Program-made: the position numbers and the translations under genes | Notes under the pieces: generated by a model | Databases searched by the model: none | Told to the model about the DNA's origin: nothing | Seen by the model: the letters and a program-made list of their open reading frames with translations, nothing else | Part shown: in pieces, positions 45,714-47,652 of the stretch | How positions within the stretch are numbered: the first letter of the stretch is position 1 | How the letters are laid out: each line of letters starts with the position of its first letter | IMG/VR virus record: IMGVR_UViG_3300045988_176358 | Length of the DNA: 50,565 bases | DNA from: a virus | Strand: one strand, 5' to 3'

Positions 45714-46697
45714 TTACTCTTCCCAAGGACGTTTGTAAAGAGTTTTACATAAAGGCTCTGAATTTTTTGAAACCTTTTTTGCAAAAGCAAGAATTTCATC
45801 TGTTGCTTCTGGCATATCTTCCTGACCTTTCATATCAGGAAGCAATCCTACTCTATGGCTTAGAGCATTACAGCCTAAACATGGCTTGAAGCTTCTTTTA
45901 CCAGCGTATAACAGAATGCGGGCAGCTTCAAATCGTTTACTGTACCAAATCTCATCAATTTCTTGTTCCATGATGTTGCCAATTGGGTATTCACCCCGGA
46001 AATCATTACAGCATATAGCCACAGAGCCATCATATCTCAGCGACAACTCTCTAAATGGTCTTGCGCACCTTTTACCCTGATAGGACATATCAAGAGGTCC
46101 AGCGGCTCCACAGTGATTGCAGAGATGACGATTGATGGCACCCTCTTTTTGAATTGGCGGATTGAATAGTACTCTGAATTTTCTTGAGCTGTTTCCATAA
46201 AGGGGTACTCCAGGAGCCAAATGCTGAATATCGATATCAGTATCCAGCTTTGTGAGCTTTTCTTCAATTGTAGCAGCGTCACCTTTGGCAGAATAGTAGT
46301 CAATGATTAAATCGTTGAGACCTGCAGCTTTTAATGCTCTGACGCGCCCCAGGATGTTCTCAAACTCATCTACTTTTTCACCAAACCCATGGACAATTCC
46401 ATAACCATTTGTCATGATAGACATAACAGCTCTTGGGAGGGCTTTTCGAAACAGCTTTATGATTCGAATGATATTCGGGTTTAGCGTGGGTTCCCCATGC
46501 ATAGAAAAGATGATGCGGCTATTCCAACCAACTCGCGCAATCTCCGAAACAATTCGTTCTGCAGTTTTCTTTGTCATTGGATACCAGGGTTTTTTACCCT
46601 CTTCTCGCATTCCACGCAACCCACAGAAATTGCATCCAAGATTGCAGCCCTCATTGAGTTCTACTTGGATAGAAAACGGTGGTGTTTGTTTTCTCAT
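45714..46697 (-). CDS. Radical SAM enzyme with a C-terminal SPASM/twitch-like Cys cluster.
   Basis: CNLGCNFC (CxxxCxxC) is 14 residues from ATG 46697. C-terminal cysteines: CNHC, CARP, ICCNDF, CLGC. The track ORF to 46916 overlaps the upstream gene. Confidence 0.85.
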   Translation of the reverse strand: MRKQTPPFSIQVELNEGCNLGCNFCGLRGMREEGKKPWYPMTKKTAERIVSEIARVGWNSRIIFSMHGEPTLNPNIIRIIKLFRKALPRAVMSIMTNGYGIVHGFGEKVDEFENILGRVRALKAAGLNDLIIDYYSAKGDAATIEEKLTKLDTDIDIQHLAPGVPLYGNSSRKFRVLFNPPIQKEGAINRHLCNHCGAAGPLDMSYQGKRCARPFRELSLRYDGSVAICCNDFRGEYPIGNIMEQEIDEIWYSKRFEAARILLYAGKRSFKPCLGCNALSHRVGLLPDMKGQEDMPEATDEILAFAKKVSKNSEPLCKTLYKRPWEE

Positions 46698-46704
46698 TGT
46701 ACTA

Positions 46705-47652
46705 TTATTCCTCCCAGTATTCCTTGATACGCTTTGAGCCATTGATTTTGTGAAATGCTGTCCAGTTGATATCACCCCACATATAATCTCCGTCAGCATC
46801 ACGAAAGCTCGTGCGCAGATAGTCTCGTATAGGGTACTTTTGTAACATATCCCATTCGTATTTGTGAAGCCGTTTTTCATTCTCTGGTGTACGAATAACG
46901 CTATCACATTTTTCACTCACATAGTCATATGTAAGGCATGGTATGTTGAAACAGTGACCACCATTAGCAAGAATAACTGCACAAAACCCAATGTCATCTC
47001 CATGAGGGTCAAAAATCATGTCACGATTTATCTTTGCTTTGTGAAGCCCTTTTACATTTATGAGAGTGACTTGTCTTGGAGTAGGTCCTGAATCAATGAT
47101 GTATTTGAGTTTGCTGTTTTCAACATGCTGTGACATTCTCTGTCTACGGATATTTCCAAGATACACATTTGGGTACTCTTTAAAAACTTCTCTTGAAATA
47201 GCTCCTGCCATTGTAAGAACTTTTTGTTCGAGTAGAGGGTCTTTTTCTCGGTCTGCTTTTACAGCATGCTTTGAGCATAGATTTCCAGAGCCAGACTTCC
47301 CATCATACATATATGCAAGATTCTTGATATCATCATCCATATCGATAATAAGTGGATAACGATGTTCCGCAGCATATTCATAAATGAACTGACGAGTGCT
47401 TGCTAACCCATTGATTGGCAGATGAAAATCTTTTGGTATAGGCAAAATATGCAAGTTTTTGTTTGCCTTTCTATATGCCTTTGCTTGTTCTTGCCTTACA
47501 ACAATATGAACTTTTTCAATGGCTTCATCTGTGAAATTCTCAAACATTTTTGCTGTCACAAACTCAGGTCTATTATAAGATGGTACAAAAATATGAGGGA
47601 GTTGGGATGTAGATAGACAGTTCAACAGGTTATACATTTTTTTCTTTCTCAT
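46705..47652 (-). CDS. GT-A-fold glycosyltransferase-like protein (DxD), possibly TET/JBP-associated-glycosyltransferase-like.
   Basis: 315 aa from ATG 47652 (RBS GGAGG 5 nt upstream). HIFVPSYNRPE... and LIIDMDDDI are typical GT-A N-terminal and DxD motifs. Confidence 0.55.
   Translation of the reverse strand: MRKKKMYNLLNCLSTSQLPHIFVPSYNRPEFVTAKMFENFTDEAIEKVHIVVRQEQAKAYRKANKNLHILPIPKDFHLPINGLASTRQFIYEYAAEHRYPLIIDMDDDIKNLAYMYDGKSGSGNLCSKHAVKADREKDPLLEQKVLTMAGAISREVFKEYPNVYLGNIRRQRMSQHVENSKLKYIIDSGPTPRQVTLINVKGLHKAKINRDMIFDPHGDDIGFCAVILANGGHCFNIPCLTYDYVSEKCDSVIRTPENEKRLHKYEWDMLQKYPIRDYLRTSFRDADGDYMWGDINWTAFHKINGSKRIKEYWEE

Follow-up and report, generated by a model that had tools for sequence, protein, structure and literature searches.

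A TAGT-family glycosyltransferase and a BtrN-like radical SAM enzyme form a candidate DNA-hypermodification pair in uncultured phages

Introduction

The uncultured-phage record IMGVR_UViG_3300045988_176358 consists of 50,565 nt of DNA, hereafter the window, and two adjacent genes on its minus strand, at 45714-47652, are the subject of this report. The upstream gene encodes a glycosyltransferase (GT) of the TAGT family, and the downstream gene encodes a radical S-adenosylmethionine (SAM) enzyme that resembles BtrN of butirosin biosynthesis. An earlier note, drawn up from the letters of this DNA, had described the two as a candidate tailoring pair for a modified base. From the analyses below, we rate the pair as a putative phage DNA-hypermodification pathway in which a radical tailoring step not described before would act on a sugar that is linked to DNA or destined for it.

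Phage DNA hypermodifications govern attack by restriction enzymes, CRISPR nucleases and DNA glycosylases, and their pathways are an enzyme source for epigenetic sequencing. To our knowledge, known DNA glycosylation pathways end either at the transfer of a sugar or at a second transfer. In the literature searched, whose coverage was incomplete, we found no description of a TAGT protein paired or fused with a radical SAM enzyme of the SPASM or twitch type.

Results

Gene boundaries and the junction of the pair

The positions of the two genes and of all other features discussed are collected in Table 1. The start of the GT gene was assigned to the ATG at 47652 rather than to the GTG at 47703 that opens a longer open reading frame (ORF), as homologues begin at the same M(R/K)KxxM; GGAGG lies 5 nt 5' of this ATG. 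The gene ends with TAA at 46707-46705, giving the C-terminus KEYWEE. Likewise, the ATG at 46697 was taken as the start of the radical SAM gene in preference to a 400-aa ORF beginning with GTG, as homologues begin at the same MRKQ. Direct reading of the sequence and the N-termini of the homologues thus agree with the earlier note, which had placed the GT stop at 46705 and the radical SAM ATG at 46697.

The two genes do not overlap, and are separated by the 7-nt spacer TAGTACA (46704-46698). The only Shine-Dalgarno-like element for the radical SAM gene, GGGAGG, is situated within the last GT codons, 12 nt before the ATG. Taking into account this short spacer and the position of the element, co-transcription of the two genes is plausible and translational coupling from GT to radical SAM gene is possible. 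The gap is 6 nt in most close relatives, 376 nt in L009 and L010 and 180 nt in L014 (L and a number denote loci on related contigs). The coupling proposed from the sequence beforehand is thus possible, and the tight spacing is not kept in all relatives.

Table 1. Positions of the gene pair and of other features in the window and at related loci
Feature	Sequence	Position	Strand	Length	Evidence or remark
TAGT-family GT-A glycosyltransferase (GT)	window	46705-47652	-	315 aa	Pfam and PHROG profiles, AlphaFold2 model
BtrN-like twitch radical SAM enzyme	window	45714-46697	-	327 aa	Pfam, PDB sequence and fold matches
Shine-Dalgarno-like GGGAGG for radical SAM gene	window	46710-46715	-		Direct sequence reading
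P-loop deoxynucleoside monophosphate (dNMP; thymidylate-type) kinase	window	45254-45679	-	141 aa	Thymidylate_kin 1e-11, PHROG 761 1.6e-17
Thymidylate-synthase-like pyrimidine hydroxymethylase	window	44346-45251	-	301 aa	Pfam Thymidylat_synt 4.5e-34
ORF of no assigned function	window	44015-44551		178 aa	
HAD-type phosphatase	window	43621-44034	-		BT0820-family-like (1.8e-31, below cut-off)
DUF669/SSB-like protein	window	47714-48421	-		
HMUDK_hel-family protein	window	6829-7863	-		Pfam HMUDK_hel ('5-hmdU DNA kinase, helical domain') 1.9e-58
dCMP deaminase	window	6181-6660	-		Adjoins HMUDK_hel-family gene
Phage sigma-70-like factor	window	12365-13006	-		Regions 2 and 4
BclA C-terminal (C1q-like) domain protein	window	38568-39011	+		
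TAGT-radical SAM fusion	L081	3324-5063		579 aa	Uninterrupted ORF
PIG-L-like domain fused to TAGT	L060	10933-12438		501 aa	
dUTPase/dCTP-deaminase-like gene	L082	8007-8432			Directly after radical SAM gene
dUTPase/dCTP-deaminase-like gene	L101	7007-7432			Directly after radical SAM gene
dUTPase/dCTP-deaminase-like gene	L069	10955-11419			Directly after radical SAM gene
IS605 OrfB/TnpB-type gene	L071	10963-12147			HTH_OrfB_IS605, OrfB_IS605, Cas12f1-like TNB

The glycosyltransferase

The Pfam family PF20691 (TAGT, TET-associated glycosyltransferase) matched the GT with 45.6 bits (cut-off 27.5, E 1e-11). The match spans the N-terminal half of the protein; the last 120 residues are peculiar to its subfamily. 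PHROG 4519, a glycosyltransferase family, covered the full length with 5.5e-23, and phrog_842, annotated as beta-glucosyl-HMC-alpha-glucosyltransferase (HMC, hydroxymethylcytosine), gave 5e-13. Homologues conserved over the full length numbered 117, among which PF20691 was present in 108. The acidic motif D106-D107-D108, TPRQ191-194 and an HGDD motif were invariant in 27 homologues, down to 33% identity. Among GenBank phages, 174 Microbacterium phages carry homologues with 25-30% identity that are annotated as glycosyltransferases.

A PDB sequence search with the GT gave no match. The AlphaFold2 model (predicted local distance difference test (pLDDT) score 93.7) adopts a GT-A fold, and a Foldseek search of the PDB with this model returned POMGNT1, ColGalT1, ppGalNAc-Ts and TarP at about 1e-6. 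Against BFVD, the model matched TAGT-domain phage proteins at 1e-15 to 1e-11. The best viral structural matches were TAGT proteins and HMC-glucosyltransferases (1e-13 to 1e-27), including a T-even-type HMC glucosyltransferase at 1e-13.

TAGT enzymes of T6-like phages put a second glucose on alpha-glucosyl-5-hydroxymethylcytosine (PMC13390438), and GT-A enzymes adjoining phage C5-methyltransferase (C5-MT) and TET genes glycosylate 5-hydroxymethylcytosine (5hmC) in DNA (bioRxiv 10.1101/2023.12.21.572611). The GT of the window shares with these T6-type and C5-MT/TET-associated proteins the GT-A fold, an acidic DxD-type motif (DDD106-108) and a phage origin. On the other hand, the window proteins scanned included neither a TET/JBP (5mYOX) protein nor a C5-MT, and a thymidylate-synthase-like hydroxymethylase is present instead; unlike in the TET-linked systems, the hydroxymethyl group would thus arise before replication. 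T-even TAGT genes also occur without TET (PMC13390438), so that the TET association names the family but does not define it. The GT can thus be placed among the TAGT-family GT-A glycosyltransferases, with a 5-hydroxymethylpyrimidine in DNA as its predicted acceptor.

The radical SAM enzyme

The second protein matched Pfam Radical_SAM (PF04055) with 45.2 bits (cut-off 29.5) and SPASM with 49 bits (cut-off 21.5), the SPASM model being one that matches twitch domains as well. All of the cysteine motifs listed in the earlier note are present. The N-terminal motif is C18-N-L-G-C22-N-F-C25, whose CX3CX2C pattern is kept in 181/182 homologues. The C-terminal cysteines are C193/C196 (CNHC), C211 (C-A-RPF), C229/C230 (ICCNDF), C273/C276 (CLGC) and, in addition, C317. 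When conservation was measured over the 182 unique homologues, C18, C22 and C25 together with five C-terminal cysteines (C211, C229, C230, C273 and C276) were invariant. The others were less conserved (C196, 93%; C193, 62%; C317, 55%).

Four of the invariant residues, C211, C229, C273 and C276, align with the auxiliary-cluster ligands C169, C187, C232 and C235 of BtrN. C230 is 100% conserved yet aligned with F188 of BtrN. The C-terminal motif reads CX12GX4C...CX2C, the first half corresponding to C211-x12-G224-x4-C229. It does not extend to the seven-cysteine SPASM motif CX9-15GX4C...CX2CX5CX3C...C, of which the second half is represented by C273-x2-C276 only; R282 and L286 occupy the positions at +5 and +3. 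Since the four auxiliary ligands of BtrN align with invariant cysteines, the protein is a twitch radical SAM enzyme with one predicted auxiliary [4Fe-4S] cluster, and not a full SPASM enzyme. The auxiliary clusters that had been suggested from at least seven further cysteines are thus reduced to a single predicted one, with five invariant C-terminal cysteines and CX2CX5CX3C cut to CX2C. The extra invariant cysteine C230 may have a catalytic role.

The nearest PDB sequence match was also BtrN (3.7e-13), with matches in the N-terminal core as well as in the C-terminal domain. In an AlphaFold model built from 28 homologues (mean pLDDT 73, predicted template-modelling (TM) score 0.80), the top fold match was BtrN 4m7t (E 6.8e-11, TM-score 0.71-0.75 normalised to BtrN); anSME, SuiB, EpeE, BlsE, AbmM, DesII and SpeY followed some four orders of magnitude behind. 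The second-best match was anSME. The list includes the sugar and nucleoside tailoring enzymes BlsE, DesII, AbmM and SpeY and the epimerase EpeE, and also SkfB and ChlB.

BtrN (4M7T/4M7S) is the 2-deoxy-scyllo-inosamine dehydrogenase of butirosin biosynthesis, and the phage enzyme has in common with it the partial TIM-barrel core, CX3CX2C and the single-cluster pattern of C-terminal cysteines. The substrate of BtrN is carbohydrate-like, an aminocyclitol, and the presumed substrate of the phage enzyme is a sugar on DNA. The two differ in that the phage enzyme is 21-22% identical to BtrN, is longer by about 80 residues, carries an insertion around residues 100-205 and has the extra C230. Taking into account the identity of about 22%, the phage replication and DNA-modification context and the absence of 2-deoxystreptamine genes among the window proteins scanned, we rejected the possibility that the protein is a BtrN orthologue. 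By analogy it may nevertheless work like BtrN.

No curated NCBIfam family matched the protein at its cut-off. The partial matches were led by twitch-domain families, spiro-SPASM and a tungsten-cofactor maturase. N_Twi_rSAM gave 1.2e-10 for the C-terminal domain but did not reach its cut-off for the whole protein. An activase for a glycyl-radical enzyme or an RNA modifier had been named beforehand as an identity that would speak against a role in DNA tailoring. No such family appeared among the best 25 of the 36 NCBIfam matches or in Pfam, and the window proteins scanned included neither a glycyl-radical enzyme nor NrdD. We therefore discarded this assignment.

Recurrence of the pair in other phages

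We found 655 radical SAM homologues (cluster representatives) conserved over their full length, essentially all on metagenomic phage-sized contigs. Eighty-one loci, forming 38 groups at 90% identity, were searched with profile hidden Markov models built from the window GT and its conserved neighbours, and a GT or candidate GT was found directly beside the radical SAM gene in 36/38 groups. BLAST had suggested that distant loci such as L001 lacked a GT. This was rejected, as the profiles found divergent TAGT-like, GT4-like and cluster-8 proteins there.

The arrangement varies. A TAGT gene adjoins the radical SAM gene directly, on either side, in the window clade, L024, L053, L059, L067, L068, L072, L073 and L077. 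In L026 the radical SAM gene is followed by a PIG-L/LmbE-like gene and then a TAGT-like GT (PF20691 7.8e-13); in L001 and L017 it is followed by a PIG-L-like gene and a 480-aa protein with GT-B-like motifs; and in L076 and L079 by a GT4-like protein. In L081 the two activities reside in one fusion protein (TAGT 1-197, Radical_SAM 277-384, twitch/SPASM 467-533), and in L060 a PIG-L-like domain is fused to TAGT. The co-occurrence that the earlier note proposed to look for is thereby borne out, with the pair adjacent in many divergent lineages, in either order, and fused in L081.

The 480-aa protein (cluster 8) has a GT-B-like N-terminus and the motif GFIIEAMLNG. It was not confirmed as a GT: it gave no Pfam or PHROG match, its profile matched in the PDB only the N-terminus of GlgA with E 0.8, and hhalign against the GT4-like cluster gave a probability of 52% over 43 columns. 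In phage relatives of about 100 kb (L001:10960-11619, L026:10903-11610 and about 50 other loci), the radical SAM gene overlaps the start of the PIG-L/LmbE-like gene. The PIG-L-like family has invariant P-H-x-x-D and G-H-P motifs, which we take to be the metal-binding signature of LmbE/PIG-L deacetylases. Its Pfam match was sub-threshold (best E 0.0036, in 8/12 members), and its profile found nothing in the PDB. These sequence features point to a candidate deacetylase in many lineages and to further processing of a GlcNAc-type sugar.

In the reverse test, the radical SAM gene was directly adjacent in 26/35 IMG/VR loci with this TAGT subfamily, including a clade with reversed gene order whose GT is only 34-38% identical. 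The remaining loci of the subfamily, as well as L083 and L084, have TAGT without the radical SAM gene in otherwise the same synteny. For example, the order in L100 is DUF669, TAGT, kinase, TS (thymidylate-synthase-like gene) and SNF2, and that in L101 is DUF669, TAGT, radical SAM, DCD, kinase and TS. The GT can therefore stand alone and the radical SAM protein almost never does, so that the latter looks like an optional add-on to the GT. Such a pattern is consistent with an enzyme that acts further on the product or the substrate of the GT.

A dUTPase/dCTP-deaminase-like gene lies directly after the radical SAM gene in several relatives, among them the three loci of Table 1, and no homologue was detectable in the window. 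As L100 is without both, the two genes may be gained or lost together. In L071, on a contig of about 115 kb, an IS605 OrfB/TnpB-type gene directly follows the radical SAM gene.

As regards distribution, megablast of the 5.5 kb region gave no match among GenBank phages, and tblastn of the radical SAM protein against 50,697 GenBank phage records gave nothing at 1e-10 and three weak uncultured matches at 1e-3. Among the 185,579 species genomes of GTDB, the family occurs in only three contigs of metagenome-assembled genomes (MAGs), two of them from Bacteroidales. The family is thus essentially restricted to uncultured phages, some of them binned with Bacteroidales MAGs.

Genes around the pair

Directly downstream of the pair and on the same strand are the kinase gene and then the gene for the thymidylate-synthase-like protein. 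The kinase also matched TIGR00041 (1.5e-13, below cut-off), and its gene is syntenic in all relatives in which the radical SAM protein is at least 66% identical. The best PDB match of the thymidylate-synthase-like protein was the CMP 5-hydroxymethylase MilA (3.6e-34), true thymidylate synthases scoring 3e-21 or weaker. At the position of N177 in E. coli ThyA this protein has Asp (GVPYD, compared with GVPFN in thymidylate synthases), and the Asp is kept in the window clade and in L082-L084. That this residue decides between cytosine and uracil specificity has been established by mutagenesis of ThyA N177 and of T4 gp42 D179. Because of the cytosine-type Asp, the enzyme is predicted to convert dCMP to 5-hydroxymethyl-dCMP (5-hm-dCMP), and the kinase is predicted to phosphorylate the hydroxymethyl-dNMP.

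Hydroxymethylases of both types accompany the radical SAM gene elsewhere, the Asp type in the window clade and L082 and the Asn type in L068 and L081. Asn-type loci such as these often also encode HMUDK_hel proteins. The occurrence with both types suggests that a particular base is less likely than the sugar to be the feature recognized in the substrate.

Upstream of the pair are genes for a DUF669 protein resembling single-stranded DNA-binding protein (SSB), an AAA_24 ATPase and a PD-(D/E)XK nuclease. The DUF669/SSB-like gene is directly upstream of the GT gene in all relatives, and in the window its product has a long charged low-complexity tail in which D/E runs alternate with K/A/P runs. 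The window corresponds to a complete phage genome of about 50.4 kb in circularly permuted form, a near-identical IMG/VR contig being 50,353 bp. A minus-strand replication block runs from 14815 to 798 and, across the ends of the window, continues at 50215-41489, and the order of its genes is as in L082: PolA, nuclease, AAA_24, DUF669, TAGT, radical SAM, kinase and TS.

A gene for an HMUDK_hel-family protein, adjoined by a dCMP deaminase gene, lies elsewhere in this block. We considered the protein as a kinase partner of the pair and rejected it, as it has no Walker A/P-loop and its gene is about 10 kb away in the circular map. The set of HMUDK_hel protein, dCMP deaminase, Asp-type thymidylate-synthase-like protein and TAGT recurs in L083 and L084. 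The presence of an hmU-type protein beside a cytosine-type hydroxymethylase raises the possibility that hm-dCMP is deaminated to hm-dUMP, or that there is a second modification.

Discussion

A proposed two-step modification of DNA

Taking into account the TAGT identity of the GT, the kinship of the radical SAM enzyme with BtrN, the adjacency and fusion of the two, and the neighbouring hydroxymethylase and kinase, we slightly favour a reading of the pair as a DNA-hypermodification module that works in two steps, in which the GT glycosylates a 5-hydroxymethylpyrimidine and the radical SAM enzyme then oxidises or epimerises the sugar. That the substrate is DNA, which base is modified, which step comes first and what product results are inferred from this evidence. 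The earlier proposal, radical chemistry on the sugar of a glycosylated hydroxymethylpyrimidine, thereby gains support, whereas we found no specific support for its alternative, a C-C/C-N rearrangement of the appended group. That this would be the first radical SAM enzyme to edit a sugar once it is on DNA, with the glycosylated 5-hydroxymethylpyrimidine oxidised or epimerised in place, we put at a little under an even chance.

In the proposed pathway, the Asp-type thymidylate-synthase-like enzyme would make 5-hm-dCMP, the kinase would phosphorylate it towards the triphosphate, and the phage PolA would incorporate it. Judging from the sequence of the hydroxymethylase, the base to be glycosylated would probably be 5hmC. 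The GT, with a nucleotide sugar and a metal site at DDD, would then glycosylate the 5-hydroxymethyl group in DNA. The radical SAM enzyme would cleave SAM at the CX3CX2C cluster, and the resulting 5'-deoxyadenosyl radical would abstract a hydrogen from a carbon of the attached sugar. From here, two routes can be envisaged. The sugar radical could pass an electron to the auxiliary [4Fe-4S] cluster and yield a keto-sugar, as in the BtrN-type dehydrogenation. Alternatively, it could take up a hydrogen on its other face, perhaps from the non-ligand C230, and yield an epimer; cysteines act as hydrogen donors in the radical SAM epimerases EpeE and NeoN, which provide the analogy for C230. In either case, the product would be a sugar beyond the ordinary donor of the GT and would not be recognized by host nucleases. 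Among the window proteins scanned against Pfam we detected neither an aminotransferase nor a reductase to use up a keto-sugar, which weakens the case for a pure dehydrogenase and makes an epimerised or stable oxidised sugar the more economical end product.

Several further observations weigh against the two-step module. The identity to BtrN is only about 22%, and the chemistry of a radical SAM enzyme cannot be read from homology; the model of this protein is also of low confidence in the cluster-binding loops. Two radical SAM lineages, L069 and L078, have no GT within 10 kb, and the cluster-8 partner is a candidate GT. The HMUDK_hel-family protein and dCMP deaminase encoded in the window raise the possibility that the base is 5-hydroxymethyluracil (5hmU), or that there are two modifications. 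The pair is known solely from sequences of uncultured phages. Finally, adjacency and fusion are equally compatible with action of the radical SAM enzyme on the nucleotide-sugar donor before transfer.

According to this last explanation, the enzyme would convert UDP-Glc or UDP-GlcNAc to an unusual donor (keto, epimerised, deoxy or decarboxylated), which TAGT would then transfer to DNA. Fold relatives do use nucleotide- or nucleoside-linked sugars, DesII a TDP-sugar and BlsE cytosylglucuronic acid. Adjacency and the TAGT-radical SAM fusion would suit channelling of substrate from the radical SAM enzyme to the GT, and the radical SAM protein almost never occurs without a GT. However, GT-only relatives in the same synteny (L100 and L084) imply that an ordinary donor suffices. 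A change of donor would also be expected to be accompanied by a co-adapted GT, yet the GTs of L100 and L101 are both 51% identical to that of the window. The PIG-L-type deacetylases of related clusters imply processing after transfer; MshB, BtrD and PIG-L are deacetylases that act on already-transferred GlcNAc conjugates. In addition, both proteins of the pair are basic (pI about 8.9), which is weak evidence against this explanation. On balance we consider modification of the donor unlikely.

We regard as less likely still that the radical SAM enzyme acts on the side chain of the base, either oxidising 5-hydroxymethyl to 5-formyl or forming a C-C/C-N bond as does gp53 of phage M6, with the GT working in parallel or subsequently. 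The enzyme anSME, which oxidises the CH2OH of Ser to CHO, was the second-best fold match, and HMUDK_hel-family proteins are found in the window and near many relatives. Against this, the association of the radical SAM gene with PIG-L-like proteins and with GTs, which belong to at least three families, is much closer than that with HMUDK_hel, and the gene is found with both Asp-type and Asn-type hydroxymethylases. A 5-formyl group is moreover not O-glycosylatable, which would set the two enzymes in competition. M6 provides a documented case of radical SAM chemistry on a thymidine adduct (PMC8989533), but M6 gp53 resembles spore photoproduct lyase (SPL) and the radical SAM enzyme of the window is from another branch.

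Placing the pair outside DNA modification seems to us highly improbable. The GT would then act on an envelope polymer or protein, in the manner of prophage TarP on teichoic acid, and the radical SAM enzyme would be a maturase, a sugar enzyme or an activase. TarP and protein O-glycosyltransferases are indeed among the GT-A fold matches, SPASM/twitch enzymes are often peptide maturases, and SuiB, SkfB and ChlB are among the fold matches of the radical SAM enzyme. Yet TAGT matched above the Pfam cut-off, and viral TAGT proteins and HMC-glucosyltransferases matched the GT at 1e-13 to 1e-27, compared with about 1e-6 for GT-A proteins of the PDB. In several lineages the pair sits within a replication module, between the gene for SSB-like DUF669 and the kinase and hydroxymethylase genes, and no precursor-peptide gene, glycyl-radical enzyme or activase-type family match was found among the window proteins scanned.

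Comparison with known systems

Among radical SAM enzymes, only the gp53 protein of M6 is documented to hypermodify a pyrimidine in phage DNA (PMC8989533). It is the SPL-like isomerase of the 5-aminoethyl-deoxyuridine (5-NedU) pathway and converts the N-C linkage of a glycine adduct into a C-C linkage; it has no twitch/SPASM domain, and its partners are a P-loop kinase, an aGPT-Pplase and a pyridoxal phosphate (PLP) decarboxylase, with no glycosyltransferase (PMC8989533). Like the presumed activity of the radical SAM enzyme of the window, gp53 tailors a group on a 5-hydroxymethylpyrimidine-derived position and is encoded in a hypermodification cluster. We rejected homology between the two, since no SPL structure was among the sequence and fold matches listed and no PLP enzyme is encoded adjacent to the pair. 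The M6 precedent cited in the earlier note is therefore valid as that of a phage-DNA hypermodification enzyme (PMC8989533), but gp53 is SPL-like and not close to the radical SAM enzyme of the window.

A second parallel is found in aminoglycoside biosynthesis. The butirosin and neomycin pathways combine a GT (BtrM/NeoD), a PIG-L-family deacetylase (BtrD/NeoL) and a radical SAM enzyme, the dehydrogenase BtrN or the epimerase NeoN. The same three classes, GT, PIG-L-like protein and BtrN-like radical SAM enzyme, are mirrored in the phage relatives of about 100 kb. The window differs in being without a PIG-L-like gene, and here the acceptor would be DNA.

Implications

If the two-step module is correct, radical chemistry on a transferred sugar would constitute a new class of step in DNA modification and give rise to a new set of DNA-linked sugars, and phages could use a common nucleotide-sugar donor to build a rare DNA glycan. 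More than 650 cluster representatives of the radical SAM family, combining modularly with TAGT, GT-B-like and PIG-L-like enzymes, suggest a set of undescribed DNA glycans. The family would represent a hidden chemistry of uncultured phages, gut phages probably included. An E. coli platform that produces 5hmC DNA is already established for work on phage GTs. L101, with the radical SAM gene, and L100, without it, provide natural matched variants.

Other features of the window

Downstream of the hydroxymethylase gene, a gene for a HAD-type phosphatase is conserved. The product may be a nucleotide or sugar-phosphate phosphatase, and its family resemblance hints at a Bacteroides-type host. The 178-aa ORF overlaps the 3' end of the thymidylate-synthase-like gene. 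The genome further encodes a phage sigma-70-like factor and a protein with a BclA C-terminal domain, the latter probably a fibre or decoration protein.

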